Under the pieces are notes generated by a model. The model saw only the letters and a list, made by a program, of their open reading frames with translations, made no database searches and was not told the DNA's origin. The translations under genes were made by a program, and so were the position numbers. Positions 3,197 to 21,224 of a DNA stretch of 43,247 nucleotides are shown one piece after another; within the stretch, counting starts at the first letter, position 1, and each line of letters starts with the position of its first letter. The DNA comes from a virus (Duplodnaviria; Caudoviricetes), in the IMG/VR virus record IMGVR_UViG_3300034127_000007, positions 1 through 43,247 of that record; one strand, 5' to 3'.

Positions 3197-3224
3197 TTGA
3201 CACCGTGTATCTAATCTGTAGAAT
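3197..3224 (+). promoter_or_regulatory. Early sigma70 promoter P2
   Basis: TTGACA-16 nt-TAGAAT with T-rich upstream sequence. Confidence 0.85.
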
Positions 3225-3346
3225 GGCCGACACAACGAAGCGACACAGCCTTACAGCGTGAAGCGGAGTTGCCCGGAGTGTAGTAGCTTCTGACTTGCGA
3301 TCCCAAGGGTGCCAAGAGTCATTAAGGAAGACGAAAAACAAAGGGG

Positions 3347-3374
3347 TTGACACACAGAAACAACGCTGTAGAAT
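3347..3374 (+). promoter_or_regulatory. Early sigma70 promoter P3
   Basis: TTGACA-16 nt-TAGAAT with an A-rich UP-like element (GAAAAACAAA). Confidence 0.85.
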
Positions 3375-3379
3375 GCGCA

Positions 3380-3745
3380 ACATTGAAACACGGATCGCCT
3401 GAACGGATGTCACGGGTAGGGCGGTTCGGTAGTAAGTTAGCTGCGGACTTAGGTGATTTTCCCTCCCGCTGCTGACCGTAACAAACGGTACTAGCCACCG
3501 ACGTGCAAGGCTGAGTAACAAACACGATGACAGGTAACGTGTGAATCCTGTCCGGCGCTGAGAACTAGCCGGGAAATAGTTCGAGCGGGTGCCTCCCCGT
3601 CCACGGTTAAGCAGTGGGTTTAGAGTGTCAGCAGGCCGAATCGAATCCGTAAGGACAAAGGCGTACGTGGTTGACTTAGGTGTCCACTCAGACGAGCGGG
3701 CAACCTAAAGGGTTCGGATCGAACCTTTTAGATTGCAACCTAACA
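3380..3745 (+). ncRNA. Putative large structured non-coding RNA / leader
   Basis: No + strand ORF of 60 aa or more. Many hairpins, a long-range helix CTGCTGAC(3469)/GTCAGCAG(3627), and a terminal 12-bp stem at 3705-3731; directly downstream of P3. Confidence 0.55.
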
Positions 3746-3758
3746 CGGAGACTGGCCG

Positions 3759-4049
3759 GTGGCTGTATTCGCAAAGCGCAAATCATCGCAGCAACAAGCG
3801 TTCGAAACTGAGGCGCAGCAATGGCAGGAATGGGAAGCGAAGCGCAACAAGCTGATAGCAGCGGGCGACGTAACCTCTAGGGCTGAGCTGCGTAAGATGC
3901 GTGATGTGTACTACGACACAGATGCAGAGGCCGGGCCGGGTGAGTACTTCAACCCGAGCGGACTACGCCGGGTTCGTGGGAGCGATGGTAAACACCGACG
4001 TATTATGAGCGGGCAGCGAGCCCGACAGATGCAAGGAGCTGGTTTGTAA
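3759..4049 (+). CDS. Hypothetical protein (96 aa)
   Basis: GGAG SD at 3747-3750, GTG start, TAATG coupling to the next ORF. Confidence 0.75.
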   Translation: MAVFAKRKSSQQQAFETEAQQWQEWEAKRNKLIAAGDVTSRAELRKMRDVYYDTDAEAGPGEYFNPSGLRRVRGSDGKHRRIMSGQRARQMQGAGL

Positions 4050-4312
4050 TGGCCCGTATCAACGAACTGTCTTTGACAGAGCGCAATAAGCGCAAGAACA
4101 AGAAGTACCCGAAGTACCTCAAAGGTAAGCCGGGCGCGGTAAGCTACATCGGCGGAGAGGGCGGCACCGACCGCGCTATCTCTAACGCCGAATCCCAACC
4201 GTTGCGTAAGGCACCGGTACGGGTAGAGCCACGGCCTAGCGTGGCAATCATCACACCTAAATCAGACGGCTACTTAGCCGCGAAAGCAATCTTGGAGCAA
4301 CGCCAACAATGA
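4049..4312 (+). CDS. Hypothetical basic protein (87 aa)
   Basis: AAGGAG SD; overlapping stop/start with both neighbours. Confidence 0.75.
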   Translation: MARINELSLTERNKRKNKKYPKYLKGKPGAVSYIGGEGGTDRAISNAESQPLRKAPVRVEPRPSVAIITPKSDGYLAAKAILEQRQQ

Positions 4313-4680
4313 GCCGTATCGTCAGTACTGAATTACCTGCGTTCTGCCTCCTGATGCTCGGCCTCAAGGATGGCCAAGCGGAACGCGCTGCACTCGCTGG
4401 TGCTGGTGTTCGCCATTACATCAAAGGCAACGCACTGCATCAGGATCGTGATAACGTGTACGTTATCGAAAAGGAGCAGTTGACCGAGGATGTCAAAGAC
4501 ATGCTGGCAACGCTCATGGTTCCGCTGGTCGTCCATGTGGACAGCAACCGCGCAACTGACACCGGGTTCAAGTCTGACGACTACAAGCCTTCCGGTACAA
4601 TGACCGGGCAGTGGGTTGCCGCTCCCAAGGACGCGTCGGTGGGGTTCCACATCAAGGGGCGCAACTTCTGTCTAGTATGA
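4309..4680 (+). CDS. Hypothetical protein (123 aa)
   Basis: GGAG SD, ATGA coupling. Confidence 0.8.
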   Translation: MSRIVSTELPAFCLLMLGLKDGQAERAALAGAGVRHYIKGNALHQDRDNVYVIEKEQLTEDVKDMLATLMVPLVVHVDSNRATDTGFKSDDYKPSGTMTGQWVAAPKDASVGFHIKGRNFCLV

Positions 4681-4751
4681 GCATCGGTCCGTCACACATC
4701 ATATTCGGCGTACTCGTAACGTACGCCATCGCTAAAGCACTGGGGTTCTAA
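4677..4751 (+). CDS. 24-aa hydrophobic membrane peptide (MSIGPSHIIFGVLVTYAIAKALGF)
   Basis: ATGA overlap with the upstream stop; fills the gap exactly; one hydrophobic segment. Confidence 0.5.
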   Translation: MSIGPSHIIFGVLVTYAIAKALGF

Positions 4752-4753
4752 CC

Positions 4754-4912
4754 ATGAAAGCAATCGTAATCGCTGTACTCGCTGTTCTTATGACTGGCTG
4801 CGTATACCAGCCCGTTCAAATCGACGTGTACGTACCAACTGCGGTAGAGCTGCACGACTCGAATGTCACCCTCGACGCCCACAAGGACGTCAACGGCACG
4901 GTGGCGCGATGA
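4754..4912 (+). CDS. 52-aa putative lipoprotein
   Basis: MKAIVIAVLAVLMTG-C: basic N-terminus, hydrophobic core and lipobox-like Cys16; ATGA coupling to the next ORF. Confidence 0.7.
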   Translation: MKAIVIAVLAVLMTGCVYQPVQIDVYVPTAVELHDSNVTLDAHKDVNGTVAR

Positions 4913-5034
4913 ACTGGCTTAGCCTGCTGTTTATCGCCACTGCTGGTAGTATCATCGGTAACCGCTTCGGCGTAGACCTCGGTATAGCTACCAGTCTCAG
5001 CCTGTACGCCTTGATGCCGTACGAGCTGCGCTAA
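4909..5034 (+). CDS. 41-aa hydrophobic peptide (MNWLSLLFIATAGSIIG...)
   Basis: ATGA overlap; two short hydrophobic stretches. Confidence 0.55.
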   Translation: MNWLSLLFIATAGSIIGNRFGVDLGIATSLSLYALMPYELR

Positions 5035-5047
5035 CTGCGCCTTCTAG

Positions 5048-5063
5048 TGTTAAGGAGTTAACA
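5048..5063. promoter_or_regulatory. Quasi-palindromic operator-like site 2 (TGTTAAGGAGTTAACA)
   Basis: 14/16 match to the 8390 palindrome; intergenic. Confidence 0.6.
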
Positions 5064-5179
5064 CCATTGAGCTAGGGTAAGCCCTCGGGGCCGTGTACAA
5101 CATCAGGATAGCAACACCGTGAACTTGGGATCATCTAGGCGCCTAATCCCACGCCATCAAACCAGATTGGAGTTACACC

Positions 5180-5653
5180 ATGTCCGAAGTACAAACCACC
5201 GCTACCGTAAAACTGTCCGCTACCGAGAAGCTGACCAACAAAATCGCTGCCCTGTTCAAGCTGGTGACCGACAAGACCGCCGAGTACCACGCCGCCGTCG
5301 CTGAACTGGAAGCCATCACCCGCGTTGCCAACGTCGGCGCCGGTGACACCGTCAAAGCTACCGTGGGCCGTGGCGAGAAAGCGCAACATCTGGAAGGCGT
5401 CGTGCTGGGTGTGGTCGAAGACGAGGCCAAGGGCAAGCTCGTCAAGATTCAAACCGGCTCGGGCTTCGACACCATGACGTTCGTGCTCAAGGCAGGCGAA
5501 ATCACCGAAGTAACGCCGAAGGCTGCTGAACCGTCTGCACTCGCTGTTGCTATGGGCACCGAAGCCGCAGGCGTGAGCGAAGCCCCGGCGGTCGATCAAG
5601 ACCAAGCCGACGTGGACGCGTACCTGTCGCAGCCACAAGTGGCAATCGCCTAA
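5180..5653 (+). CDS. Hypothetical protein (157 aa; coiled coil plus beta domain plus acidic tail)
   Basis: GGAG SD; strongly biased codon usage suggesting high expression. Confidence 0.85.
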   Translation: MSEVQTTATVKLSATEKLTNKIAALFKLVTDKTAEYHAAVAELEAITRVANVGAGDTVKATVGRGEKAQHLEGVVLGVVEDEAKGKLVKIQTGSGFDTMTFVLKAGEITEVTPKAAEPSALAVAMGTEAAGVSEAPAVDQDQADVDAYLSQPQVAIA

Positions 5654-5683
5654 CAAACCCACCTCGTACTAGGAGTTCTACCC

Positions 5684-6118
5684 ATGGTTAAACGCATTGG
5701 CCGCTTGTCCTCGTTCTTTGTCCTCGCTGTGGCCGCTCTCGGCACCGTGGCGGCGTTTGTTGGTGCACCGGAAGCCGAGGCCAAGGGGTTCAGTTCGTCG
5801 CGCTCCAGTAGCTCTATGAGCCGTTCCAGCTACCGCCCAGCGGCCCGCCCTGTGACCGTGAACAAGACGTACGTTAATCGTACGACTGTGGTGCATCAGG
5901 CTGCGCCGTCGGCTGGCGGTGGCGGGTTCATGTCCAGCGTGGCGGGCTCGTTCGCTGGTTCGTCTCTGGCGAACTGGTGGAGCAACAGCAACCGTGAAGA
6001 GGACGAGGCGAAAGCCAAGGCCGCTGAGCAAGAGAAGCAAGAAGCGTTGGACCGCCAGCGTATGGACCTCCTGTTGCAACAGCAGGCCGCGAAGCCTGCC
6101 GCTGAACTGGTGAAGTAA
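5684..6118 (+). CDS. Putative exported/membrane protein with Ser/Gly-rich segment
   Basis: AGGAG SD; N-terminal signal peptide ending A-E-A; Ser-rich tract, Gly-rich amphipathic segment, C-terminal coiled coil. Confidence 0.8.
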   Translation: MVKRIGRLSSFFVLAVAALGTVAAFVGAPEAEAKGFSSSRSSSSMSRSSYRPAARPVTVNKTYVNRTTVVHQAAPSAGGGGFMSSVAGSFAGSSLANWWSNSNREEDEAKAKAAEQEKQEALDRQRMDLLLQQQAAKPAAELVK

Positions 6119-6181
6119 GTCAAGTCGATGGGCTGCACTCGCGGCCCATCCGCTGGAACATCTAACCTAGGAGCTTTACCT

Positions 6182-6361
6182 ATGACACGTCGTACCGCAT
6201 CGAACATTAACGCCCTGCGCCTGCGTAGTGATTGGCTGATGGTGAGTAACCGCGACCGCCAGTACGTGCGGCATTTCTCGGCACCCACAGCGAACAAGCT
6301 GGACGGTGTTATTACCGTGTGCCCTGCTGGCGTAGCCTCGGTGCCGGAGTGGATGCAATGA
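6182..6361 (+). CDS. Hypothetical protein (59 aa)
   Basis: AGGAG SD before ATG 6182; ATGA coupling to the next ORF. Confidence 0.65.
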   Translation: MTRRTASNINALRLRSDWLMVSNRDRQYVRHFSAPTANKLDGVITVCPAGVASVPEWMQ

Positions 6362-7041
6362 CGTACCTCGCCTTCGCGCTGGTCGTGGCGCTCATTGTTA
6401 TCCTGTTCCTACTGGCCACGTTGGACAGAGCACGGACACGGTGGTCTGAATTCGTCAACCGCACCGAGGCACGCTCCTTCGCGCACTTGGCCGAAGTGCA
6501 ACGAGTACAACGCGAAGTCGAAGAATGGAAGACTATCGCCGAACGCAAGACAATGGCTTACAACGAACAAAGGGGAATGTATGCAGCACTTGCTAAAAGA
6601 CGGAACGCTGGGTGTGAGTGCACGTTCACATCTGCACCCACGCTTACTGGCACACCTCGACACTCTCGTACGTCTTTCGCGGGAGTTCGAAGTGGACCAC
6701 GATGTACATCGTGTGTTGCAATGTATGAACGATGGAGAGCGCGACACCTTAGCTTGGCTGCGCCTGTGCCAAGTCGGGCCGAGTGCGTACGTGGTCCCGT
6801 TCCTGTCGCCGACGTACTGTGCCGCTTTGTTGACGGAATCCCGTTCGTTACCGTACTCGACGAACGCGGCGGAAGAGGACAAGCTACAGACGGACGAGTG
6901 TGTCTTGGCGGAAGTGTGTCCCCTGTTGGGCCGGACGCTTACAGAACTCCTTGCGGGGTCGCTCTTCCACGTCATGCACCTTGCGCATGGGTGCGTACCG
7001 GAAGCTGTCCATTCGGTGCAGTTGACCCGGTACGCCGCTAA
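6358..7041 (+). CDS. N-terminally membrane-anchored coiled-coil protein; frame runs on over the oxygenase gene
   Basis: ATGA coupling, TM segment YLAFALVVALIVILFLLA, then coiled coil; the 3' 461 nt overlap the next gene. Confidence 0.55.
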   Translation: MTYLAFALVVALIVILFLLATLDRARTRWSEFVNRTEARSFAHLAEVQRVQREVEEWKTIAERKTMAYNEQRGMYAALAKRRNAGCECTFTSAPTLTGTPRHSRTSFAGVRSGPRCTSCVAMYERWRARHLSLAAPVPSRAECVRGPVPVADVLCRFVDGIPFVTVLDERGGRGQATDGRVCLGGSVSPVGPDAYRTPCGVALPRHAPCAWVRTGSCPFGAVDPVRR

Positions 7042-7297
7042 CGGTTCATTCCAAGGCGTATGGCATAACGATCAAGACAGCGACCAGACGGTAATCGTCG
7101 AGCTGGACCCAAGCACCCACACAGGAGGCCGCACCATGTTGATGGACGGCCCCCTGTGTACCGTGGAGGCGCCTGTACTCGCACAAGGCGAGGCGCTTAT
7201 CTTGTGCGGCAAGACAACCTTACATGCTGGCGTGCCATTGAAGGCAGGCGAGCGGAACATCCTCGTGTACTGGACGGAGACAAAACGTAGTGAATAA
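6581..7297 (+). CDS. 2OG-Fe(II) oxygenase (OGFOD2/PLOD-like DSBH domain)
   Basis: RY...HND (HxD) motif, GG turn, distal H (LHAG) and 2OG-binding R (GERNILVYW); AGGGG SD before ATG 6581. Confidence 0.85.
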   Translation: MQHLLKDGTLGVSARSHLHPRLLAHLDTLVRLSREFEVDHDVHRVLQCMNDGERDTLAWLRLCQVGPSAYVVPFLSPTYCAALLTESRSLPYSTNAAEEDKLQTDECVLAEVCPLLGRTLTELLAGSLFHVMHLAHGCVPEAVHSVQLTRYAANGSFQGVWHNDQDSDQTVIVELDPSTHTGGRTMLMDGPLCTVEAPVLAQGEALILCGKTTLHAGVPLKAGERNILVYWTETKRSE

Positions 7298-7934
7298 ATA
7301 TCCCGGTCATTTGACCCAAGCACCGACTACCGGCGACTACGCCGCAGCCAAGAAGAACGCAGCCGAAGTGCTGCGTCAATGTCAAGTGGGCAACGTGTTG
7401 GCGTACATCGCTGGCGGTTGTGCCCGTGACTTCGCGCTGGGTGGCACACCCAAGGACATCGACGTGGTGGTACATGGTCCCGACCGCGACACACAGCGCT
7501 ACGTCATCGGCGAGCTGGAGGCGCTGGGTTATCATGTGATGGCGGACTACGAACGCCAGCTTATCGAAGGCGCGCAGTACCTCGTGGACTCGGTGAGTGG
7601 TGGGCAAGCGCCTGTGACTGACGGGCACGCCATTGACTCCGCGTCAGTGAACGTACTGACCGACGACCGTTGGTGCCGCGTGGTGAAGCTGGAGCGCCAA
7701 GGCCATCTGCCCGTTGACATCCTGTTCACACCGGAGCCGCGTAGCGTGACGCTGGTTATCGACTCGTTCGACTTCAACATTAACCAGTACGCTATCCTGC
7801 GCCCCGGTAACGCCCCGCTGTATCTCGGCACCACACCCGGCGGCACCTTGCACCAGAACCGCAGCGCCTCGGTGTCCCCGTGCCGCATTGAACACATCCG
7901 CAACACTGCCCGCAAATACAACTGGAGTATCTGA
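7290..7934 (+). CDS. Nucleotidyltransferase, CCA/poly(A) polymerase head-domain type
   Basis: IAGGCARD...PKDIDV catalytic motif and FDFNINQ (DFTINA-like) motif. Confidence 0.85.
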   Translation: MNKYPGHLTQAPTTGDYAAAKKNAAEVLRQCQVGNVLAYIAGGCARDFALGGTPKDIDVVVHGPDRDTQRYVIGELEALGYHVMADYERQLIEGAQYLVDSVSGGQAPVTDGHAIDSASVNVLTDDRWCRVVKLERQGHLPVDILFTPEPRSVTLVIDSFDFNINQYAILRPGNAPLYLGTTPGGTLHQNRSASVSPCRIEHIRNTARKYNWSI

Positions 7935-7935
7935 T

Positions 7936-8388
7936 ATGAAATTGAACGCCAACCAATCCCGCTTTATCAATCAATTGTTGCTCAAAGGACCGCAGCGCTC
8001 CGACGAGCTGGCGCAGGCCGTGGGTGTGCAGAACTCGACGATTGGTCACATCGGTATCGAGCTGCGTCAACAAGGGCTCGTATCCAGCACCAACGATGGT
8101 GCCGCGTACCAACTGTGGGCACTCACCGACCATTGCCGCAAGTGCCTGAACGAAGCTGCCTTGGCCGAGCGCGTCAAGGCGGCTAAACCGTTCCGCGTGC
8201 TCGTTGTCAGTGACTCTGGTATCGAGCTGCTGGACAGTAAGTACGGGACGCAGGAGAGCGCACAGAACCGCGCTAACTCAGCTATCGAGAAGACCACACC
8301 GGACACCGTCGCGTACGTCGTTACCTTGCACTCGTCGGTAAAATACGTGGCGCCGGTTGCTGCGGCTCGCGACATCGTGCACTACTAA
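7936..8388 (+). CDS. Winged helix-turn-helix DNA-binding protein
   Basis: N-terminal GPQRSDELAQAVGVQNSTIGHIGIELRQQGLV has a MarR/ArsR-like wHTH pattern; GGAG SD before ATG 7936. Confidence 0.75.
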   Translation: MKLNANQSRFINQLLLKGPQRSDELAQAVGVQNSTIGHIGIELRQQGLVSSTNDGAAYQLWALTDHCRKCLNEAALAERVKAAKPFRVLVVSDSGIELLDSKYGTQESAQNRANSAIEKTTPDTVAYVVTLHSSVKYVAPVAAARDIVHY

Positions 8389-8389
8389 C

Positions 8390-8405
8390 TGTTAACGCGT
8401 TAACA
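8390..8405. promoter_or_regulatory. Perfect 16-bp palindrome, operator-like site 3 (TGTTAACGCGTTAACA)
   Basis: Perfect inverted repeat starting 2 nt after the wHTH stop codon and just before the SD of the next gene. Confidence 0.65.
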
Positions 8406-8418
8406 CCAAGGAGCTACC

Positions 8419-8862
8419 ATGAACCAAGTACAGAAAGCCCGCGCCGCATTCTCTTCCGGGATGGCGTCGTTGAAGAAAGAGCGCGCCGCAGTGCGAGCGG
8501 AGTACAAGCGCGTCAAGGGTATGAACGACCACTTGAACGCAACCATTGTCGAGCAGAACGAGCGGCTGGAGACACTGGCACGGAATTGTGCGCACTACCG
8601 TGAACGTATCAGCGAGCTTAATAACAAGCTGGCCATCCGCGACGACAACGACTCTCGCCAATTTAACGAACTCGGCGAGCTGCGCCGCGCACTGCGTAAC
8701 GAGCGTATCGCTTACAGCAAGCTGGAACGTGAACTCTCCCGCGAGTCGGCTAACAAGCGTACTGCTGTAACCATCGGGTACATGCTCTGCGCTCTGGTGC
8801 TGGGTTACGCTGGCCCACAGGCGTGGGGTAAACTCCAACCTGTTATCGCGTCGTTCATGTAA
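8419..8862 (+). CDS. Coiled-coil protein with C-terminal transmembrane anchor
   Basis: AAGGAG SD; heptad-rich helix followed by AVTIGYMLCALVLGYA. Confidence 0.8.
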   Translation: MNQVQKARAAFSSGMASLKKERAAVRAEYKRVKGMNDHLNATIVEQNERLETLARNCAHYRERISELNNKLAIRDDNDSRQFNELGELRRALRNERIAYSKLERELSRESANKRTAVTIGYMLCALVLGYAGPQAWGKLQPVIASFM

Positions 8863-9665
8863 TGGCTATTCCGGCTCACGAGTTCCTACACCATGCGAAG
8901 TCGTTAGCCGTCGGTCAATCGGGGCGGTTCCCTCACAAGTGCGGACCAACTAGGGTGCTGCATGTAGGGAATGCCCCTGATAGGTATTGGTGCAAGTGCT
9001 ACCGCTGCCATCAGGGCGGCGTGGTCGAAAAGACGCATGTAATCCTTGCGCCAATCGCCAATCAGAAGCGGTTCATGCCTTGGCCCGACGATGCTAAGGA
9101 TTTGGCACTATGGCCTGCGTATACGCAGGAGGTACTGTTTAAACTGCTGTTAGAAAAGGGCATAGACCGACAGGTTATGCTGGGGGATACGCATGTATGG
9201 TACAGTGAGAAACAAGGTCGTTTGTTGTTTGGTACTCGGCTTGGTTGGCTTGGGCGTGCTACGCGGGGACAACTCCCCAAATGGGCAGGCTACGGGTATC
9301 CAGCGCCAGAGTACGGCGCGCATCCTTTGGATACGCCGACTCCCACGGTTGTACTGACCGAGGACTACTTATCAGCAATGAAGGTGAGGTGGGCAATTCA
9401 TGGACTACCCGGTGTATCAGTGCAAGCATTGCTTGGAACGGAGCTTAAGACGCGAACGCTTGCTGACCTGTTGTCAGGAGGCACGACGACGCGGGTTCTT
9501 ACGTTCCTCGACGGGGATAGCGGCGGTTGGAATGGTGTCCCTCTGGTGCATCGTAGGGCTCGGGGTATGGGCCTTTCGGTTGGTAACATCATAACGCCGA
9601 CGGGTAAAGACCCGAAGGACTTAACCAAGCAACACATAATCGACCTTGTAGGAGGTGCGTTATAG
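8862..9665 (+). CDS. DNA primase (phiKMV-type, Zn finger plus TOPRIM)
   Basis: HxC...CYRC zinc ligands, LTEDYLSA and FLDGD TOPRIM motifs, KDPKD; sits before the helicase. Confidence 0.9.
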   Translation: MAIPAHEFLHHAKSLAVGQSGRFPHKCGPTRVLHVGNAPDRYWCKCYRCHQGGVVEKTHVILAPIANQKRFMPWPDDAKDLALWPAYTQEVLFKLLLEKGIDRQVMLGDTHVWYSEKQGRLLFGTRLGWLGRATRGQLPKWAGYGYPAPEYGAHPLDTPTPTVVLTEDYLSAMKVRWAIHGLPGVSVQALLGTELKTRTLADLLSGGTTTRVLTFLDGDSGGWNGVPLVHRRARGMGLSVGNIITPTGKDPKDLTKQHIIDLVGGAL

Positions 9666-10939
9666 AGATTCCAATCCTGCAAGCCTTGCGAGACAAACAG
9701 AAGTACCGCATGCTGCGAAACGCTGTGCCTATGGAAATGCTGGCACAGGAAACACAACTCCTTGTGAACTGGTACGCGCACTATTGGGACGCGTACAAAA
9801 CGCACGAGTTCATTGATCTGGACGCGCTGGATTCTGTTATCAAGTTGCGTTCGGGCTACCCTCCTGAAACAATGTCGTTGGTCATGCGACTGACGGGTAT
9901 GTTGCGAAAGCCGGTTGACGAGTCCGTTATTAACGGTATCGTGGGCCAGCTTGTGGAAATGGACTTCGCCGGTAAGGTGGGTGCGATGGTTGCACAGCAC
10001 CAAGCAGGCGCGGATATGCACCTCGTATACGAGTTGAACAAGCTCGTCACCGAGGCCAAGGAGCGCGGCGAGAAGTCCAGCGCCCACGAGTACATCGACG
10101 AGGACGTGGTATCTATCCTCGACGACGAGGCCGGGGACGTGGGTATTAAGCTGCCCACCTTGCTGCTACAGCAGAACGTCAAAGGACTGCTGGGTGGCGT
10201 GAGCGTTGCTGTAGCTGCGCGACCGGACAAGGGCAAGACCTCTCTACTCGCAAAGATTCTGACGTACGCTGCGCCACAGTTGCCGGAGCACTTCGACGCA
10301 GACCGCCCGATTCTGTGGCTGAACAACGAGGGGCGAGGTCGTCGCATCATCCCACGGGTGTACCAAGCAGCCTTGGATTGTAGCGTAGACGAGCTTTACA
10401 CCATGTCAAATGCTGGTGTGTTGGTCCCGAACTACGAGAAGGCAATCAAGGCACCGCGCAATAAAATCCGTATCAAGGACATGCACGGCGCGACGTTGCC
10501 GGAGCTGGAGCAAGTCATTGAAGCGGTGAAGCCTGCCATTGTCTGCTTCGACATGGTGGCGAACTTCCGCTTACCCGGTGCCGGTGGCAGTGGGAACAAA
10601 GCGGACGAGGTCGAGGAGAAGTGGATTCAGATTCGTGAAATGTCTGTACGTCACGACTTTATCAGCTTCGGTACGGTTCAAATCTCCGACTTGGGCGACG
10701 CCCAACTGTACCCGCCGTACAACGCGTTGAAGGATTCCCGCACGGGTATTCAGGGCGCTACGGATATCATCCTGATGATGGGTGCGCTAAACGATGCGCG
10801 GGCACAGAGCTTGCGCGGACTGAGTACACCTAAGAACAAGTTTGCCATGAGTGGCAAGCAATCCCATTGCATGGGCGAAGTCGTGTTTGACGGCGCTAAT
10901 TGCCAATTCCGAGACGGTCAAGTGGAGTACCAAAATTGA
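9662..10939 (+). CDS. Replicative DnaB-like DNA helicase (probable ATA start; first canonical start TTG 9686)
   Basis: Walker A ARPDKGKTS, LNNEG, Walker B VCFD, KDSRTGIQG; GGAGG SD 6 nt before ATA 9662. Confidence 0.92.
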   Translation: MEIPILQALRDKQKYRMLRNAVPMEMLAQETQLLVNWYAHYWDAYKTHEFIDLDALDSVIKLRSGYPPETMSLVMRLTGMLRKPVDESVINGIVGQLVEMDFAGKVGAMVAQHQAGADMHLVYELNKLVTEAKERGEKSSAHEYIDEDVVSILDDEAGDVGIKLPTLLLQQNVKGLLGGVSVAVAARPDKGKTSLLAKILTYAAPQLPEHFDADRPILWLNNEGRGRRIIPRVYQAALDCSVDELYTMSNAGVLVPNYEKAIKAPRNKIRIKDMHGATLPELEQVIEAVKPAIVCFDMVANFRLPGAGGSGNKADEVEEKWIQIREMSVRHDFISFGTVQISDLGDAQLYPPYNALKDSRTGIQGATDIILMMGALNDARAQSLRGLSTPKNKFAMSGKQSHCMGEVVFDGANCQFRDGQVEYQN

Positions 10940-11916
10940 GTAAGACTAAACCGCGTTTCATGGCAGTAAAGCCGCACCGTGCTGTGGACTGGAACGAGAA
11001 GGCAATCGCCAAGGTGATCGCCGAGCGGGGCTATGTACTCGCAGGTGTCAAGGTTGACGGCATGCGCTGCCACGTCTTGCAGGTGGACGGCAAGGTGCAT
11101 TTCCTGACCCGTTCTGGTATCGAGATTCCATCACTGGCGAACTACGCCGAGTACTTCGAGAAGCGTTGGCGCTCGCAGTTCAATCTGGCGGACTACCACG
11201 TACTCGATTGTGAAGTGGTGTTGCTGGGCGTGGACTTCCAAACCGGCTGCGGTATCCTGCGCCGCGACGAGGTGTTGGCCGAGTACGTCCCGCAGTTCGT
11301 AGTCCTCGATATCGTCACCCAAGCGCATTTGCGCAACGAGTACACCGGCGAACTCCATGCCGGTTTTGAAGCACGCTACGCCGGTATCGTCGGTCGCTTC
11401 CCGGTACACGTTGCCATGAAATCGAACGCGCTAGTTGTCTCTGAATCACTGGCGAAGTTGTCCAGTCTGTCGATGATCGCCGAGCACTACGCCACCGTAC
11501 GCGGTATGGGCTTCGAAGGTCTGGTGGTCAAAGACCCGGCGTGTACAATCAAGAACGGCAAGGTGTCGGGCGCATGGAAGGTCAAGCCGGGCTGCGGTGC
11601 TGACTTCGCACCGGGTTGGGAGGGTGACGGCGTTGTCACTGGTTACGTGTGGGGCGACGAGGACAAGGCGAACGCCGGTAAAATCGTCGGCTTCCGCGTC
11701 AAGCTGGAGAGCGGTGTAGAGGTGAACGTTACCGGCCTGACACAAGAGCAGATGGAAGTATTCACGGACCCGACGCACCCACAAGGGGAGCGCGGCGGCT
11801 ACATCGGGCGATACGTTGAAATCAAGGCAATGGAACTGACCCCAGCGGGCAGCCTGCGGCACCCGACCTTTAACCGCTTCCGTGACCTTGAGTCCGCGCC
11901 GGGGGTGAAGTCGTGA
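10936..11916 (+). CDS. ATP-dependent DNA ligase
   Basis: KVDGMR adenylation motif, EGLVVK, WKVKP, SLRHP; TTG start after GGAG, overlapping the helicase stop. Confidence 0.92.
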   Translation: MSKTKPRFMAVKPHRAVDWNEKAIAKVIAERGYVLAGVKVDGMRCHVLQVDGKVHFLTRSGIEIPSLANYAEYFEKRWRSQFNLADYHVLDCEVVLLGVDFQTGCGILRRDEVLAEYVPQFVVLDIVTQAHLRNEYTGELHAGFEARYAGIVGRFPVHVAMKSNALVVSESLAKLSSLSMIAEHYATVRGMGFEGLVVKDPACTIKNGKVSGAWKVKPGCGADFAPGWEGDGVVTGYVWGDEDKANAGKIVGFRVKLESGVEVNVTGLTQEQMEVFTDPTHPQGERGGYIGRYVEIKAMELTPAGSLRHPTFNRFRDLESAPGVKS

Positions 11917-12221
11917 GCCGCTTCCGTGTAACGACCTGCCCTGAAATGCTGCGGGACGCGATCATGCATAGCACCGGGGCGCAGCTTGGCGCCCTGTACG
12001 ACGGCGTTAAGGTGGACGTGTGGCAAGACCCTGCGATGTTTGACCTACGTATCGAGGTGCGTATCCGGCACCGCCAGCGGGAGTACCGGTACGGTAGTGC
12101 CTTTGACATCTATATGTTCATGGGCCACGACGGCGGGTTCTACAAGGATTACATCCGTACTGAGTTCCCGCGCCTCGTTGCACGGGAAGTTAACGATATC
12201 ATTATGAGGGCTGCACTTTGA
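11913..12221 (+). CDS. Hypothetical protein (102 aa)
   Basis: GTGA coupling to the ligase; fills the gap before the polymerase. Confidence 0.75.
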   Translation: MSRFRVTTCPEMLRDAIMHSTGAQLGALYDGVKVDVWQDPAMFDLRIEVRIRHRQREYRYGSAFDIYMFMGHDGGFYKDYIRTEFPRLVAREVNDIIMRAAL

Positions 12222-12418
12222 CATTCACCATCGTAGATAAGCGGGACGGGTTCCCGCATACCACAGGTAAACGGGCGGATTGGTCCCGTAGCGGTAGCGC
12301 TTTCGAATCCGGGCGCATGTCCATGCACGACTACACAACTGACACCCATGTGTGGGTACAGACCCGCAGCTATCGGGAGGCCGTGCGGCGCCTGCGTCGA
12401 TTCCTCAAGGGACATTAA
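12218..12418 (+). CDS. Hypothetical protein (66 aa)
   Basis: GAGG SD; TTGA overlap; ends just before the polymerase ATG. Confidence 0.65.
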   Translation: MTFTIVDKRDGFPHTTGKRADWSRSGSAFESGRMSMHDYTTDTHVWVQTRSYREAVRRLRRFLKGH

Positions 12419-12419
12419 A

Positions 12420-14777
12420 ATGCGTATCCGTATCCTCGATTTGGAAACGCAGAACCACCCGTACCTAGGCGCGGTCGCTTCTGCGCACTGTCCAGCTAAC
12501 TACATCGTCCTTGCAGGTTGGCAAGACTATGTGGACAATCAACCCGCCGAACGTGTGTGCCACCGTTTCGAGAGCCGGGAAGCAGCGGACGCCGCCGACT
12601 GGTTCAACCTCGACGGGGTAGACATGTTGGTGGCGCACAACGCCATGTACGAGCTGTCGTGGTTCATCACCCGTTACCAGCCGGAGCTGCTGCGCTTCCT
12701 CAAGCGCGGCGGTCGTGTGGTGTGTACGCAGTTGGCCGAGTACCTGCTTAGCCATCAGACGTGGACGTATCCCGCGTTGAACGAGGTGGCACAGAAGTAC
12801 GGCGGTACTGCGAAGGTGGACGCCGTGAAGCTGGAATGGGAGCGGGGTGTACTCACCGCCGACATTGACCCGGCGCTGTTGCACGAATACCTGATGGGAC
12901 CGAGCGGCGACATCGACAACACCACCCGCGTGTTCTTCGGCCAAATGCAGAAGTTGGTGGCGGAAGGTATGTGGCGAATGTTTCTTGAGCGCTGCGAGGG
13001 CATGGTATGCTTCGCGTTCTGTGAAGCTGCTGGCCTGTACGTGAACCAGCAGGTAGCGCAGAAGAACCACGCCGAGCAACTGCAAGAGCTGGAGGGGATC
13101 AACAAGCAGATTGAGAGTCTGCTGCCTGTACTCCCCGATACTTTCGAGTGGAACTGGGGCTCGGACTTCCATATGTCCGCGCTGCTGTTCGGTGGCGAGG
13201 TGAAGTACCAGCAGCGTGTACCGCGTACCGATGCAGACGGTAACGTCATGTACGAGAAGGTCGATTGTTACCTTTTTGATAAGGGTGGCGCGGATAAGTA
13301 CATTACAGCCAGTGACTTCGATACCGAGGACGGTGCTGAGTTGTTCGCGCATTACGTGGAGCGGTACGGCAATGTTGACCGCTATAGCGCGGGTAAGAAC
13401 AAGGGACAGTTGAAGTTACACAAGGTCGTAACGGCGAAGCCTCAGACCAAGTGGGCGGACACCACGTTCAAGTTCCCCGGCCTGTTGCCACAGGACAAGA
13501 TGCCAAAGGTACTGGCGGACAAGTTCGCCTTTGACCCGAACGCACGGCGCAACGGCGAGTACGTCGGTAAGCGGTTTCTGCCTTGCGGTACGCCTGTGTA
13601 CTCCACCGGCAAAGAGGTTCTGGAAGCGTTGGCCGTTCACGGCTTCGCGGCGGGTAAGCTCCTTAACCGTAAGGCGCAACTCGACAAGGACAACGGCACG
13701 TACTACATCAGCCACGAGTACAACCCTGACGGCTCTATCAAGAAGACGAAAGGGATGTTGCAGTACGTTGGCGACGACGGCATTATCCACCACAGCTTAA
13801 ACATCGCTGCCACCACGACCGGACGCCTGTCGTCCAGTAACCCGAACCTGCAAAACTTGCCGCGTGACGGTACGTCGAAGGTGAAGGAAATGTTTACGTC
13901 CCGCTTTGGCGATGACGGCGTAATCATCGAGGTGGACTATACGGCGCTGGAAGTCGTGATGTTGGCCGCGTTGTCCGGGGACCAAGCGCTACTTAAGCAC
14001 TTGATCGACGGCGACGACATGCACTGTCTGCGACTGGCTGCGAAGCTCAAGGAGTCGTACGAGTCGGTGCTGGAGAAGGCGACCAACAAGGAACACCCGG
14101 AACACAAGGCGTACAAGCAGATGCGGACGGACATCAAGCCGCCGTCGTTTGCTGCGCAGTACGGCGCCTCGGCGCATGGTATTGCATTCGCTACCGGTGT
14201 GAGTCTGGAGTACGCCGAAGAGTTCCTAGCAGCCGAAGCGCGCCTGTTCCCGCGTGCGATTGCGTTCCGTGATGTTGTGCGGGCCGAGGTCGTGAAGACG
14301 GGTAATAGCCAGCGCGGTTTGTGCCGGGAGCAGGACGACGTGGGTAACTTCCGCGTGTACCGTCGCGGCTGGTATCAGGCCGACGGTGGGACGTGCTACA
14401 GCTTCCGCCAGTTCGATGTGTGGAACGCGGATACGCGCCGCCGTGAACTGGACTACAAGCCGACGCAGATTGCCAACTACTGGTGCCAAGGTGAGGCCGG
14501 GTTCTTAATGACCCTCTCTGCCGGTCGCGTCATGCGTTGGGCTATCCAGCACCCGGAATTCCTCAAGAAGTTTTTCATCATCAACAACGTACACGACGCC
14601 CTGTACTTCGACTGTCATAAAGACGTGTTCCGCGAAGTCGGCTTGGCGGCGAAAGCAATCTTGGAGGACGCACCGCTCTATATGTCCCGTGAGCTGGGCT
14701 ACAACATCAGCCACGTTCCGTTCCCGGCAGTCGCCGAGGCCGGTCCTAGCATGTACTCCAAATCCGTAATCCAGTAA
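12420..14777 (+). CDS. DNA polymerase, family A, with 3'-5' exonuclease
   Basis: ExoI ILDLET, AHNAMYE, TGRLSSSNPNLQNLP, motif A EVDYTALE, motif B RTDIKPPSFAAQYG, motif C VHDALYF. Confidence 0.95.
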   Translation: MRIRILDLETQNHPYLGAVASAHCPANYIVLAGWQDYVDNQPAERVCHRFESREAADAADWFNLDGVDMLVAHNAMYELSWFITRYQPELLRFLKRGGRVVCTQLAEYLLSHQTWTYPALNEVAQKYGGTAKVDAVKLEWERGVLTADIDPALLHEYLMGPSGDIDNTTRVFFGQMQKLVAEGMWRMFLERCEGMVCFAFCEAAGLYVNQQVAQKNHAEQLQELEGINKQIESLLPVLPDTFEWNWGSDFHMSALLFGGEVKYQQRVPRTDADGNVMYEKVDCYLFDKGGADKYITASDFDTEDGAELFAHYVERYGNVDRYSAGKNKGQLKLHKVVTAKPQTKWADTTFKFPGLLPQDKMPKVLADKFAFDPNARRNGEYVGKRFLPCGTPVYSTGKEVLEALAVHGFAAGKLLNRKAQLDKDNGTYYISHEYNPDGSIKKTKGMLQYVGDDGIIHHSLNIAATTTGRLSSSNPNLQNLPRDGTSKVKEMFTSRFGDDGVIIEVDYTALEVVMLAALSGDQALLKHLIDGDDMHCLRLAAKLKESYESVLEKATNKEHPEHKAYKQMRTDIKPPSFAAQYGASAHGIAFATGVSLEYAEEFLAAEARLFPRAIAFRDVVRAEVVKTGNSQRGLCREQDDVGNFRVYRRGWYQADGGTCYSFRQFDVWNADTRRRELDYKPTQIANYWCQGEAGFLMTLSAGRVMRWAIQHPEFLKKFFIINNVHDALYFDCHKDVFREVGLAAKAILEDAPLYMSRELGYNISHVPFPAVAEAGPSMYSKSVIQ

Positions 14778-14787
14778 GGTAGAAAGC

Positions 14788-15780
14788 ATGACTCAAGCAA
14801 CTATGACCCGCGTTCAACGTATGCAAGCACTGGCCGCGCAGAACGCAGCCGTTACTCAAATCGACATGAGCGAAGTCAGCAAGGGCGGGGCCGGTCGTCG
14901 CCTGCTGCCTGCCGGTATGGCGTACGGTCGTCTGGTACGATACATCGAGTTCGGTAACCACAAGAACGAGTACCAAGGGCAGGTGAAGCAGCCTACGCCT
15001 GTGGTCCGTATCGGCTTCGCCCTGTGGGGTGACGCGGACCCGAGCAACCCCGGCCAAGAGGGTAACCAGTATCACACCATGAAAGACGGTGTGGCGGTGC
15101 CTGCGATCTTGAATAGCTTCGACATGAAGCTGGGTAACAACGAGAAGTCGAAGAGCAAGATTGCTTTCGACAAGTTGAACTACAAGGGGCTTGCCAAGAA
15201 CTTCGCACAGTTCATCGGCGACGCGTTCTTGGTCCCTATCCTCGTGAAGAAGGGCACCAAGGCCGACAGCAAGCCGTACAACGAGATCGACTGGAAGGGC
15301 ATTCTGCCGCCACACTGCCCAATGACTAAGCAGCCCTATGGCATCCCCGAGGCGCCGGAAGACGCCTATCAGATGTTCCTGTGGGACAGCCCAACCCAAG
15401 AGGATTGGGATAGCCTGTTCATCGACGGCCAGAACGACCAAGGGAAGTCTAAAAACTTCCTGCAAGCGAAGTGCCTGGAGGCGTTGAACTTCCGTGGCTC
15501 TATGCTGGAACAGATGCTCGGTGGCGCCCTGCCGGACTTCGGCGGCGGCGTGGAGGGTGACGAAGACCCGGACGAGGCTACCCCAGCGGCAGGCAACGTA
15601 CCGGCTGTACCGAACGTCCCAAGCGTTCCTGCGGTTCCGGCTGTACCTTCGACCCTGCCTGACGTACCATTCGACGGCGGCACGCCTGTCGTGGCTCCTG
15701 CGGTTGCCCCTATCACTGCACCGGCTGGCCTGCCTAACATGCCTGCCCTGCCTGCGGTAGCGGGTATTCCCGGCCTGTGA
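14788..15780 (+). CDS. Conserved phiKMV-type replication-region protein (possible ssDNA-binding), Pro/Ala-rich C-terminal tail
   Basis: Syntenic between polymerase and exonuclease; RLVRYIEFGNH motif typical of this family; acidic then PAVP-repeat tail. Confidence 0.7.
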   Translation: MTQATMTRVQRMQALAAQNAAVTQIDMSEVSKGGAGRRLLPAGMAYGRLVRYIEFGNHKNEYQGQVKQPTPVVRIGFALWGDADPSNPGQEGNQYHTMKDGVAVPAILNSFDMKLGNNEKSKSKIAFDKLNYKGLAKNFAQFIGDAFLVPILVKKGTKADSKPYNEIDWKGILPPHCPMTKQPYGIPEAPEDAYQMFLWDSPTQEDWDSLFIDGQNDQGKSKNFLQAKCLEALNFRGSMLEQMLGGALPDFGGGVEGDEDPDEATPAAGNVPAVPNVPSVPAVPAVPSTLPDVPFDGGTPVVAPAVAPITAPAGLPNMPALPAVAGIPGL

Positions 15781-16754
15781 TGGTCTGGAGAGGTCGAGAC
15801 TTGAGCGGCTTGCCCGCTCAATTCGATCCGAAGCCAGCAGGTTCAAGAACGTTGATTCTTGACGGTGACGGCCCGTGTTATCGGGCCTGCACCACGGCCA
15901 AGACCCTGCCGACTGCCATACGAAAGTTCGTACAGATTGTGCTGGAGATTCAGTACTTGACGAACTGTTCGGATGTTCGGATACACCTCACCGCCAAGGG
16001 GAGCAAGAAGGCGAACCGGGCGCTGTACCCAACGTTTTGGGGTTACCAAGACAAGCGGGGCGGTTCGCCTAAACCACCTTTACTTGAGCCGCTGCGCCAA
16101 GCTGTGTACGATTCGCTCCAACGAGAGAACGGCGAGTTACCACCCGAGTGGTGGTGCGAGCTGCATAACTTTTGGGAAGCGGACGACGGCATTATCATGG
16201 ACGCCGTACGCCTCGGGGATAACGCTGTGGTCTGGTCCGAGGACAAGGACATGCGGCTAACACCCGGCCCGTACTTCGAACTCAAGACAGGTACGACGGA
16301 CTTTATCGACAACCGTTTTGGTTGGATCGGTGAGGACTTCACGCCTGCCGGTAAGCTCAAGGTGGTAGGGCACGGTACTAAGTTCTTTTGGGCGCAGATG
16401 CTCATGGGCGATGGTGCCGACCGTGTGCGCGGGTTGGATCGACTGGACGGTAAGAACATCGCCGAACGTGGCGCGCTGGACTTCCTACAGGGGATCAACT
16501 GCGAGAGCGAGGCAGCCAATGCTGTACTCGCAGCTTATGGCCGGTCGGGACAGAACCCACTGGCAGAGGCGGAAATGATGTGGTTGCGCCGGGGCCAACA
16601 GGACAGCGCGTACCGGTACTTAACAGAGCTGGACTTACTCCCGCATCTGCGGCAATGGATGGACGACCTGCACGGCTACCACCAACAGGTAATAGAAATC
16701 CGGCTCAAAGAAAAGGAGGAACAGGCTCGTGACCGAGACGACGAAGATTCTTAA
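15777..16754 (+). CDS. 5'-3' exonuclease
   Basis: LILDGDG, WEADD, SEDKDM, QMLMGDGAD motifs. Confidence 0.9.
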   Translation: MMVWRGRDLSGLPAQFDPKPAGSRTLILDGDGPCYRACTTAKTLPTAIRKFVQIVLEIQYLTNCSDVRIHLTAKGSKKANRALYPTFWGYQDKRGGSPKPPLLEPLRQAVYDSLQRENGELPPEWWCELHNFWEADDGIIMDAVRLGDNAVVWSEDKDMRLTPGPYFELKTGTTDFIDNRFGWIGEDFTPAGKLKVVGHGTKFFWAQMLMGDGADRVRGLDRLDGKNIAERGALDFLQGINCESEAANAVLAAYGRSGQNPLAEAEMMWLRRGQQDSAYRYLTELDLLPHLRQWMDDLHGYHQQVIEIRLKEKEEQARDRDDEDS

Positions 16755-18161: not shown

Positions 18162-18199
18162 ACAAGGTGGCGCCTTCGGGCGCCGCCTACGGGGAACGT

Positions 18200-18559: not shown

Positions 18560-18562
18560 ACA
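18547..18562. promoter_or_regulatory. Quasi-palindromic operator-like site 4 (TATTAACGAGTAAACA)
   Basis: 13/16 match; at the junction before the last ORF preceding the RNAP gene. Confidence 0.5.
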
Positions 18563-18564
18563 CC

Positions 18565-18741: not shown

Positions 18742-18750
18742 GGAATACCC

Positions 18751-21186
18751 GTGGATTTAACCGCCCAACAAATCGAACTGGAGGTATCCGCCGACCACGC
18801 GGCTACCGCAAACGCCATCAAGGAACACGCCGAGATTGTAGCGCGTGGTGACATCGACAAGCTGCCACGCGGCAACGCCTTGATAGCCCGTATGTTCGGG
18901 GCGGTTAAGGCGCATATCGAAGGCGAGCAGCAGAAGACCGCACGGGGGCAGGGTGCCCACCTCAAGGGGTGGCTACGGCGCATCCCTGCGGACGTTGCAG
19001 CGGTGATCGCCCTGCGGACTACCTTAGCCAAGGTGTTGCAGGACCACACCACGTACACGACGTTCCAGACGCTTACGGTGAATATCGGGCGGGAGTGGGT
19101 ACGCGAGATTCAGGTGCGGGACGCCGAGAGCGTCAACCCTGAGTACTACGCCGAGGCCATGCGCAGGCTGTCCAAGGCGAACGTATCCAGCCCGGTGCAC
19201 ATCAAGAAGACGCTTAGCCGCGTCGTCAAGAACGTACTAGACGGACTGTACGACGACCAGTTGGGGGAGACTGAGCTTGCCCACCTAGGCAAGCACGGGC
19301 TACAAGGCTGTATGGACGCCGGTTTGGTGGAGATAAAGCGAGGGACCAACAAGCGGGGCCACCTCGTCGAGTACGTGCTTACAGAGCCCGTACGGGACTT
19401 CCTACTGGATAGTACCGATATGCAGCGCTTTGCCTCGCCGACCGACTGTATTATGCTGGTGCCACCACTGCCGTGGGAGGCCACGACAGGCGGCGGATTC
19501 CTCACAGAACGCCGGCAAATGCGCTTCCCGCTGATTAACACCCGGAAGGTGCGTAGAGGGCGTACCAAGGCGTACAGAGAGGCGTGCAGCCGCCAGAACA
19601 TGCCGCAGGTGTATCAGATTGCGAACTACTTACAGTCGATCCCGTACCGCATGAACCCGGAAGTGTTCCGCCACGTACAACGTGTGTGGCAGGCCGGGGG
19701 TGGGGCGCTGGGTATGCCGTCGGTGAACCCACCGGTTAAGCCGGGGTTCCCCTTTGGTGACGACTGGAAGCGCGACAACGCCAGCGAGGAGGAGCTAGAG
19801 CAGTTCTTTCTCTGGAAGCGGCGGATGGTGGAGTGGCACGAACAGCGTCTTGTCCACCGTTCGGCTGTGTGGGAAATGGCGAGCTTTGTCCGTAACGTGG
19901 GACGGTGCAGCGAGTTCGATTCGTACTTCCCGGTGTTCATCGACTCGCGGGGCCGCTGGTACTACCGAGGCACGCCGAACCCGCAGGGGAGCGACGCTGC
20001 CAAGGCTGTGATACAGTTCGCCCGTAAGAAGCCCCTAGGGGAGCGTGGTGCGTTCTGGTTGCAGGTGCACATTGCGAACTGCTTCGGCGTGGACAAGCCC
20101 CAGATGGAGGAGCGGGCGAAGTGGACCCGCGACCATTGGTTGGAGCTGTGCGACGCTCTGGCCGCGCCTGAGGTGTCTAACATCTTTCAGCAGGCCGACA
20201 GCCCGTTCTGCGCTATCGCCGCCTGTATCGACCTCAAAGCAGCCTACGACAGCGGTAACCACAAGACGTACTTGTCTGGTGTACCTGTGCACATGGACGC
20301 CACTTGCTCGGGCTTGCAGCACTTCTCGGCTATGCTGCGCGACGAGATTGGCGGGCAGTACGTGAACCTCACACCGGGCGGCACACACAAGGCGGATATC
20401 TATCGCCGTGTTGCTGACTTGGTACTGGCGAAGGCGAAGGCCGACGCAGCAGGCGGTAACGTCTCGGCGCGGTACTGGCTGGAGATTGGTGTAACGCGGG
20501 ACATGGCGAAGTCGCCGGTCATGACGTACGTGTACGGGGCCACGCATATGTCCGTATCGGGCGGTATCATGGCCCACCTCATGGACGAGCATTCGTGGGA
20601 TAGCAAAGAGCGCGGAGTGACTGCCGGTAAGATGGCGGGATACCTCACCACCTTGATATTCAAGGCGATTGAAGAGACGGTGCCCAAGGCAGCCGAGGCC
20701 ATGCGGTGGTTGAAGGAGTTGATGCGCGAGCTGGATCGCGAGAGCCCGGCGCAGTACTGTACGCCAATCGGGATGTTCGTTAACCACGACTACCCGGACC
20801 AAGAGCAAACCCGCGTGGACATGCGCTCGTGTGGGATTACTAAGGTCGTGATGTACAAGCAACTCGACGTGACCAAGCCCCAGCGGATGCAGAACGCCAT
20901 TGCACCGAACTTTGTACACAGCCTCGATGCTGCGCACTTGGGCTTCACGGCGCTGCGTATGGAACACGACGGGCTGGCGATGGTCTGTATTCACGACTCG
21001 TTTGGGACGCACCCGTGCGACGTTGACGCGATGCAGCGGCATATCCGTTTGGCGTTCATTCATATGTACAGCGGTAAAGACCACTTGAACGACCTAGCAA
21101 GACAGCTTGGGGTTAATGCGACATACAATGGTACAGGTAGTTTAGACCTTGCCGGTATTGAACATTCTGAGTTCTTCTTTTGCTAG
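18751..21186 (+). CDS. Single-subunit T7-like RNA polymerase
   Basis: DSRGRWY, HMDATCSGLQH (motif A), RDMAKSPVMTYVYG (motif B), APNFVHSLDA, IHDSFGTH (motif C), C-terminal FFFC. Confidence 0.97.
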   Translation: MDLTAQQIELEVSADHAATANAIKEHAEIVARGDIDKLPRGNALIARMFGAVKAHIEGEQQKTARGQGAHLKGWLRRIPADVAAVIALRTTLAKVLQDHTTYTTFQTLTVNIGREWVREIQVRDAESVNPEYYAEAMRRLSKANVSSPVHIKKTLSRVVKNVLDGLYDDQLGETELAHLGKHGLQGCMDAGLVEIKRGTNKRGHLVEYVLTEPVRDFLLDSTDMQRFASPTDCIMLVPPLPWEATTGGGFLTERRQMRFPLINTRKVRRGRTKAYREACSRQNMPQVYQIANYLQSIPYRMNPEVFRHVQRVWQAGGGALGMPSVNPPVKPGFPFGDDWKRDNASEEELEQFFLWKRRMVEWHEQRLVHRSAVWEMASFVRNVGRCSEFDSYFPVFIDSRGRWYYRGTPNPQGSDAAKAVIQFARKKPLGERGAFWLQVHIANCFGVDKPQMEERAKWTRDHWLELCDALAAPEVSNIFQQADSPFCAIAACIDLKAAYDSGNHKTYLSGVPVHMDATCSGLQHFSAMLRDEIGGQYVNLTPGGTHKADIYRRVADLVLAKAKADAAGGNVSARYWLEIGVTRDMAKSPVMTYVYGATHMSVSGGIMAHLMDEHSWDSKERGVTAGKMAGYLTTLIFKAIEETVPKAAEAMRWLKELMRELDRESPAQYCTPIGMFVNHDYPDQEQTRVDMRSCGITKVVMYKQLDVTKPQRMQNAIAPNFVHSLDAAHLGFTALRMEHDGLAMVCIHDSFGTHPCDVDAMQRHIRLAFIHMYSGKDHLNDLARQLGVNATYNGTGSLDLAGIEHSEFFFC
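21112..21134 (+). promoter_or_regulatory. Late phage promoter inside the RNAP 3' end
   Basis: GTTAATGCGACATACAATGGTAC. Confidence 0.75.
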
Positions 21187-21201
21187 GTCAAGAGGGTAAT
21201 T

Positions 21202-21224
21202 CTTAATGCGACATACAATGGTAG
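21202..21224 (+). promoter_or_regulatory. Late phage promoter downstream of RNAP
   Basis: CTTAATGCGACATACAATGGTAG, intergenic, at the start of the structural module. Confidence 0.85.

Follow-up and report, generated by a model that had tools for sequence, protein, structure and literature searches.

The window, the whole stretch of DNA that was analysed, is the complete 43,247-base virus record IMGVR_UViG_3300034127_000007, the genome of a phiKMV-like Pseudomonas phage. Its genes have the phiKMV-type order: primase, helicase, ligase, DNA polymerase, nucleases, RNA polymerase and virion genes. The RNA polymerase is 64% identical to those of the Pseudomonas phages phiB1_1 and the MR series and 41% identical to that of LKD16. 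Three sigma70-type promoters, each matching the consensus at 11 of 12 positions, are located on the + strand at 954, 3197 and 3347. The second and third, promoters P2 and P3, stand ahead of a leader (3375-3758), the conserved core of which is the subject of this report. The region between the first promoter and promoters P2 and P3 (954-3112) is unusual in that it holds open reading frames of 365 and 190 amino acids without a PHROG match. An antisense sigma70-type promoter is present at 122-94, and a 16-bp inverted repeat at 2498-2534, just ahead of the gene at 2540, is a further RNase III-like hairpin. The features of the locus are as follows.

3197..3224, + strand: sigma70-type promoter P2 (TTGACA-16-TAGAAT)
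3232..3335, + strand: separate conserved leader element after promoter P2, outside the core, common to T7-like Pseudomonas phages
3347..3374, + strand: sigma70-type promoter P3, with a start at about 3381 predicted from the -10 spacing
3400..3420, + strand: short conserved GGA-containing module, also found in Pf-10 and other T7-like Pseudomonas phages
3529..3552, + strand: hairpin abutting the core (GACAGG/CCTGTC), not general among homologues
3700..3736, + strand: 16-bp hairpin (z -4.87), by analogy with LUZ19 a predicted RNase III-type processing site between the leader and the first gene
3759..4049, + strand: first gene after the leader, phrog_5722 (function unknown), with the ribosome-binding site GGAG at 3747-3750
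18751..21186, + strand: phage RNA polymerase gene, 15.2 kb downstream of the core

The leader is, to judge from its matches, a mosaic, and no phage record covers 80% or more of 3375-3758. The stretch 3484-3533 matches the nearest relative (L001) only, whereas 3543-3613 matches Phikmvvirus at 78-85%, despite the polymerases being only about 41% identical. The element at 3232-3335 was found in 44 Pseudomonas phage records, mostly T7-like, and its Pf-10 version is able to form an H-type pseudoknot. A 20-nt motif with ACGGATG, which is common to T7-like and phiKMV-like Pseudomonas phages and which we take to resemble a single CsrA/RsmA site, is located at 3400-3420 in the window, at 5817-5870 in L001 (two copies), at 4345 in L002 and at 516 in L209.

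A preliminary description of the same DNA had treated the leader as one structured, multibranched non-coding RNA of about 380 nt at the head of an operon transcribed by the host polymerase. The analysis supports a structured RNA at the head of this operon, in the form of a 68-nt module in a mosaic leader rather than a single 380-nt RNA. The fold of the whole 384 nt is not special (minimum free energy -134.8, z -1.31, with 13 of 100 shuffles as good). All of the hairpins listed in that description are present, and so are the complement CTGCTGAC/GTCAGCAG and the motifs duplicated at 3446/3673, 3700/3735 and 3478/3515, each of which occurs just twice on the + strand of the genome. The number of repeats of at least 9 nt in the leader, three, exceeds chance (reached in 5 of 2000 shuffles); the three pairs are 9-10 nt long and are not kept in relatives. 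TTAGGT could pair with either copy of ACCTAA, in competition with the hairpin at 3700-3736. The TTAGGT/ACCTAA pseudoknot and the long-range helix that had been suggested find no comparative support, because their sequence is unaligned to the nearest relatives. The + strand of the leader has no open reading frame of 60 or more amino acids, as had been noted, and none of 10 or more with a Shine-Dalgarno-like site. Two of the hairpins had been described incompletely. The 12-bp stem at 3705-3731 extends to 16 bp (3700-3736), and in the case of the CCGGC/GCCGG hairpin the pairing of its loop with TAGTTC (3577-3582) and the hairpins at 3585-3617 had been overlooked. Of the checks that the description proposed, a search with the Rfam 15 covariance models, run on the window, on KP34 and on three further loci, had no match over the core even at E values as high as 10, while covariation among relatives was borne out for the core at 3551-3618, with two-sided changes in P1 and P2.

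The core was found by following the match of 3543-3613 to Phikmvvirus. Covariation supports its folding into an H-type pseudoknot, formed by the helices P1 and P2, which is followed by a joint of the bases GA and by two hairpins, P3 and P4, that abut each other. The 5' side of P1 is followed by GCUGA, a 6-nt strand, P1' and an A-rich linker, after which come the complement of the 6-nt strand (forming P2), GA, P3 and P4. Their positions in the window are as follows.

3551..3573, + strand: stem P1, 3551-3556 with 3568-3573; two-sided changes in 5 of 5 pairs
3557..3567, + strand: loop of P1, comprising the conserved GCTGA (3557-3561) and the 5' strand of P2
3562..3582, + strand: pseudoknot helix P2, GAACTA (3562-3567) with TAGTTC (3577-3582); two-sided changes in 6 of 6 pairs
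3574..3576, + strand: A-rich linker
3583..3600, + strand: invariant GA joint (3583-3584) and hairpin P3, 3585-3589 with 3596-3600, with a variable loop
3601..3618, + strand: hairpin P4, CCAC/GTGG, with a conserved GG..GCA loop

When 24 sequences were aligned with MAFFT, 95.7% of 491 cells were paired, as against 34-45% in slid registers, and the covariation score was reached by none of 500 shuffles. A second set of 28 distinct sequences, partly overlapping the first and fitted to the covariance model, though P1 lies outside the model, pairs in 97.4% of cells. Pairing in P3 and P4 was counted in these two alignments, and that in P2 in 46 distinct homologues, among which P2 has 22 different strand sequences and 272 of 276 cells are Watson-Crick. 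In the same homologues 214 of 230 cells of P1 pair, a count lowered by L001, which was parsed with a 6-nt P2 though it is offset by one base. P4 is almost invariant, its variants being CCCC/GGGG and CCTC/GAGG, and in Phikmvvirus an extra hairpin is inserted in its loop. The hairpin abutting the core (GACAGG/CCTGTC) has a complementary 6-bp match in LUZ19, which is absent from the predicted LUZ19 fold. KP34, which was outside the training set, scores 67 bits and has new compensatory changes in P2 and P3. A descriptor consisting of the fold and the GA only has one match in the window and none in 256 kb of shuffles, and all of its matches in 1.13 Mb are at leaders of this kind. The G-U wobble pairs and the A-rich linkers point to an RNA of the + strand.

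The core is carried by Phikmvvirus, by Aeromonas phages of the Ahp1-, Atoyac- and AS7-like types, by Erwinia phage Loshitsa2, by Koutsourovirus and Pollyceevirus, by Pectobacterium phages, by Klebsiella KP34-like phages and by 50-kb Vibrio phages such as IME271; 65 Klebsiella records matched, some over 26 bases only. Its carriers represent two phage families and five families of hosts. A diverged form, with the same threading and other loop sequences, occurs in the Acinetobacter Friunavirus Fri1 and in contigs G014, G024 and G031. The Fri1 stretch is common to 150 Acinetobacter phage records, and compensatory changes in P1 and P4 are present in the three that were compared. Of the core, the diverged variants retain the helices, the A that precedes P2 and the GA that follows it, and nothing else. 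The replication modules of the carriers are unrelated, and at the loci inspected the carriers share no adjacent gene; the neighbour-gene searches gave 1, 1 and 4 loci. L002, a contig that is 60% complete, has an orthologue of the gene at 3759 and no core. Where the distance was measured, the RNA polymerase gene lies 15-19 kb from the core (17-19 kb downstream in KP34 and G046). Three carriers, IME271, G041 and G042, gave no match to a phage RNA polymerase in a search in which the positive controls matched. In IME271 the core heads a co-directional gene block of 25 kb.

The covariance model was run over 50 records (37 of 80 loci picked for length, L002 and 12 named records), of which 13 matched, one of them being rejected on inspection (a weak match in G007 was so rejected). 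The core is present in 11 of 27 near-complete late-polymerase IMG/VR genomes, six of these being in the training set, and absent from the other 16. It is also absent from all 77 T7-like loci, which are close kin with 68-100% identity in the RNA polymerase, and the model found no match in T7, Pf-10, SP6, phi-2, LKA1, RSB3, Axy21, phiNV3, VP93 or VpV262. Because it is missing from the 16 genomes and from phi-2, LKA1, RSB3, Axy21, phiNV3, VP93 and VpV262, the core is not necessary for the late-polymerase genome plan. A pattern scan of GTDB genomes gave seven matches, none with the pseudoknot, and the four that were scored with the model reached at most 26 bits. The corresponding scan of metagenomes gave 34 matches, four of them with the pseudoknot (L099, L101, L106 and L117); most of the others are one repeated gut coding sequence without a pseudoknot.

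The position of the core relative to promoters is regular. In phiKMV, LUZ19, KP34 and the Aeromonas, Erwinia, Pectobacterium and Vibrio-type podophages it closely follows early promoters of the sigma70 type. A promoter was found for 44 of the 46 homologues examined, 38-275 nt upstream of the core in 43 of them and 358 nt upstream in one. Contig G040 contains two cores, separated by 2.4 kb; both have a promoter of their own 38-40 nt upstream, and they precede different genes. A stem of at least 14 bp follows within 200 nt of the core in 44 of 46 homologues, as against 196 of 460 shuffles, with spacings from the core to this hairpin and to the first gene that vary widely. A GCC-GA(A/T)T...CAA-GGC hairpin is also found downstream of the core at 3632-3662 in the window, at 1571-1593 in LUZ19 (L003) and in G031 (L228).

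The T7 leader is released by RNase III before gene 0.3. This precedent and a 3' end in LUZ19 suggest that the leader of the window may likewise be released by RNase III at the hairpin at 3700-3736; the RNA end was mapped in the LUZ19 counterpart of this hairpin only. According to the available part of the LUZ19 transcript data, host transcription starts at 950-1284 and 3' ends lie at 1704 and 1768, so that the core region is downstream of the starts P002-P005 and within the units ending at 1704 and 1768 (PMC10914365). The same part of that source places the sense-strand promoters of the phage polymerase only after the RNA polymerase gene, and lists two non-coding RNA candidates, neither of them at the core locus (PMC10914365). 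Position 1704 falls within the 5' arm of the long hairpin. A nanopore RNA run (X1), which may not be independent of the data of PMC10914365, has a poly(A)-tailed end at the equivalent of 1704, and just past it the summed contig depth, which is no measure of expression, drops more than 1000-fold. This fall may be due to processing in a 5'-enriched library or to real termination. The LUZ19 5' end P006 (L003 1561), mapped just after the hairpin downstream of the core and given without promoter motif or activity in the available data, may be a processing site. The Illumina runs X6, X7 and X9 consist of contigs and show cover only. In X9 many short deep contigs lie at L019 431-508, right behind one host promoter, which suggests an abundant small RNA.

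Other signals are found in early leaders. The boxA core occurs right after the promoter in 59 of the 77 T7-like loci and in T7, Pf-10, LKA1 and phiNV3. To judge from these loci and from Pf-10, early leaders are a place for elongation signals. With up to one mismatch allowed, boxA is absent from the leader of the window, which has a promoter cassette similar to those of the T7-like loci and Pf-10, and it is absent from the leaders of LUZ19 and Loshitsa2. The idea that boxA and the core exclude each other fails, as several carriers have both. In the A1 leader hairpin of T7 (L208, about 535-580) and of L270-L336 the loop GTCAA and a stretch downstream are constant, while the stem varies on both sides; by the model this hairpin is unrelated to the core. 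The contrast between early- and late-polymerase phages is weaker than it appears, because the T7-like loci are close kin and T7 has this leader hairpin of its own. The preliminary description gave about 17 kb as the length that the host polymerase must read, and the distance from promoter P3 to the end of the RNA polymerase gene is indeed 17.8 kb. Of 15 terminator-like sites at 3700-23000, 13 are on the minus strand and two on the + strand, so the host polymerase would meet few intrinsic terminators on its way.

Beyond the fold, the strand, the place behind host-type promoters, the distribution and the transcription of the homologous LUZ19 region, which are established, a function can be proposed for the core. 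We put at roughly 45% the probability that it acts in cis on the host RNA polymerase, which would then resist pausing and termination over 15-25 kb, in the manner of the put RNA of phage HK022. Since the polymerase gene is distant or missing and no adjacent gene is shared at the loci inspected, the core is likely to have some conserved factor of the host as its partner. Action on the transcribing host polymerase is the simplest reading, because the core stands behind each host promoter, is probably cut from the mRNA, has no partner gene and is widely spread. The RNA would fold on leaving the polymerase and dock on it, or on a Nus or Rho factor, via the unpaired GCUGA, the GA joint and the P4 loop. 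The downstream stem would uncouple the core from the downstream mRNA, and the core would still be effective once the leader was cut there, as put RNA is without a tether. Counting against such an activity are the 16 late-polymerase genomes and the other phages that lack the core, the boxA of several carriers, the scarcity of intrinsic terminators on the + strand and the leader hairpin that T7 has of its own; the 3' end at LUZ19 1704, too, could be real termination. A put-like antiterminator had been suggested in the preliminary description; by position, one copy per promoter and distribution it is the best-supported guess, and the core is nevertheless not a put homologue. Slightly more tentative is the wider proposal that the core represents, besides put and without structural relation to it, another class of transcription modifier made of RNA alone, with which lytic podophages of at least two families, the late-polymerase Autographiviridae and the polymerase-less Vibrio-type podophages, would reprogramme the host polymerase for long-range read-through and DNA entry.

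The leader, once freed at the downstream hairpin, might instead act in trans, the pseudoknot serving to inhibit a conserved factor of the host or as a decoy for it; Rho, RNase E, a ribosomal protein and a defence sensor are conceivable targets. Such a role would be suited by the abundance of a leader species whose poly(A)-tailed 3' end corresponds to LUZ19 1704, by the long hairpin after the core in nearly all homologues and by a distance between promoter and core that varies from 38 to 358 nt, but we consider it rather doubtful. Contig depth is no measure of RNA level, the remaining leader is not conserved, and the two copies behind two promoters in G040 fit a role in cis better; the several host families would also fit a core host factor and not a patchy defence system. 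An element that shields the early transcripts from RNase E, or that steers the cleavage of the leader by RNase III, would likewise be a compact pseudoknot near the 5' end of the transcript followed by a long hairpin. The core lies 5' of the predicted cut, however, and could not protect the coding mRNA afterwards, and its distances from the hairpin and the first gene cover a wide range, so that this role is unlikely. A self-cleaving ribozyme of an undescribed class, processing the early leader, is a shade less likely again. Its size, the pseudoknot and the conserved unpaired CUGA and GA resemble small nucleolytic ribozymes, but the hammerhead core and topology are lacking, and besides the helices the diverged variants share no more than the GA joint and the A that precedes P2. 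Ends with a cyclic phosphate could escape poly(A) tailing, which makes the LUZ19 ends a weak argument against cleavage. That argument is that the mapped units run through the core, and that no end is called inside it among the supplement rows (PMC10914365).

Two further readings have very little probability. The preliminary description had offered, as an alternative, a trans-acting RNA such as a protein sponge, and had pointed to several ANGGA motifs. On this reading the whole 380-nt leader, as one multibranch RNA, would sponge CsrA/RsmA-type proteins through GGA. The long-range helix is present in the minimum-energy structure, the GGA module at 3400-3420 is conserved in several Pseudomonas phages and the three repeats exceed chance, yet the z-score of the whole fold is unremarkable, no record covers 80% of the region, ANGGA motifs are not enriched (4 against a mean of 2.0; 269 of 2000 shuffles) and the conserved core is free of GGA. 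A role in DNA entry or replication, as a structured primer, an R-loop RNA or a single-stranded DNA signal, is just as improbable: the core lies near the left end of linear genomes, as such a signal would, but its G-U wobbles and A-rich linkers indicate a + strand RNA, and neither the two promoter-linked copies in G040 nor the unrelated replication modules of the carriers agree with it.

The put-like action on host polymerase would bear on phages of wide use. The phiKMV-, KP34- and Fri1-like phages belong to those most often employed in therapy and as models, and the reading of 15-20 kb by the host polymerase up to a late-placed polymerase gene is unexplained in the literature found. If the proposal is true, an RNA-only modifier had gone unnoticed in phiKMV, KP34 and Friunavirus; it would be an antiterminator consisting of RNA alone, with a fold unrelated to put, and a portable tool of 70 nt. 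If the core does not modify the polymerase, it is still an uncatalogued and widespread family of phage RNAs. Being compact and strongly covarying, and having one helix whose pairing can be disrupted and then re-established, it is directly testable. The literature found does not describe it, and it may be an unnamed candidate among the 10,006 candidate viral RNAs of which PMC10690425, in its available part, gives account.

The core can be compared with several known systems. The left end of T7 (A1-A3) has a similar layout, in which a cluster of host promoters is followed by a gene-free leader and a long hairpin before the first gene. It differs in having boxA and its own A1-leader hairpin, no match to the core, and a polymerase gene less than 3 kb from the promoters. 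The Csr/Rsm sponge RNAs of the RsmY/RsmZ type have many GGA motifs in hairpin loops. The leader has one ACGGAUG in a predicted hairpin loop at 3403 and, in contrast to the sponges, no array of GGA loops. The hammerhead consensus consists of CUGAnGA and a GAAA core around a three-way junction. Like the hammerhead, which is of similar size, the core has CUGA before a helix and GA after it, but its CUGA adjoins P2 directly, with GAR following, so that neither CUGAnGA nor GAAA is present; the helices are threaded as a pseudoknot and there is no Rfam match. The put RNA of HK022, which binds the beta' zinc-binding domain of the polymerase and thereby suppresses pausing and termination, is the closest in its arrangement. 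It is 70 nt long, occurs once per early promoter and is active over 10 kb and without a tether, with putR located 270 nt from its start site, according to the available part of PMC9378689. The core also has about 70 nt, lies downstream of early host-polymerase promoters in one copy per promoter, and, to judge from the neighbouring genes at the loci inspected, has no dedicated protein; the paired copies behind separate promoters in G040 resemble putL and putR. The two are set apart by fold and by type of phage. For put, which belongs to a temperate lambdoid phage, a pair of stem-loops and a short triple helix are described (available part of PMC9378689, a paper in which the word pseudoknot does not occur), whereas the core is an H-type pseudoknot with two hairpins from lytic podophages. 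The blastn matches listed for the core are to podophages, with no lambdoid phage among them. The tests for the folds of put, of the hammerhead and of the Rsm sponges failed, and the core is therefore filed as a new structural family, which by analogy probably works like put.
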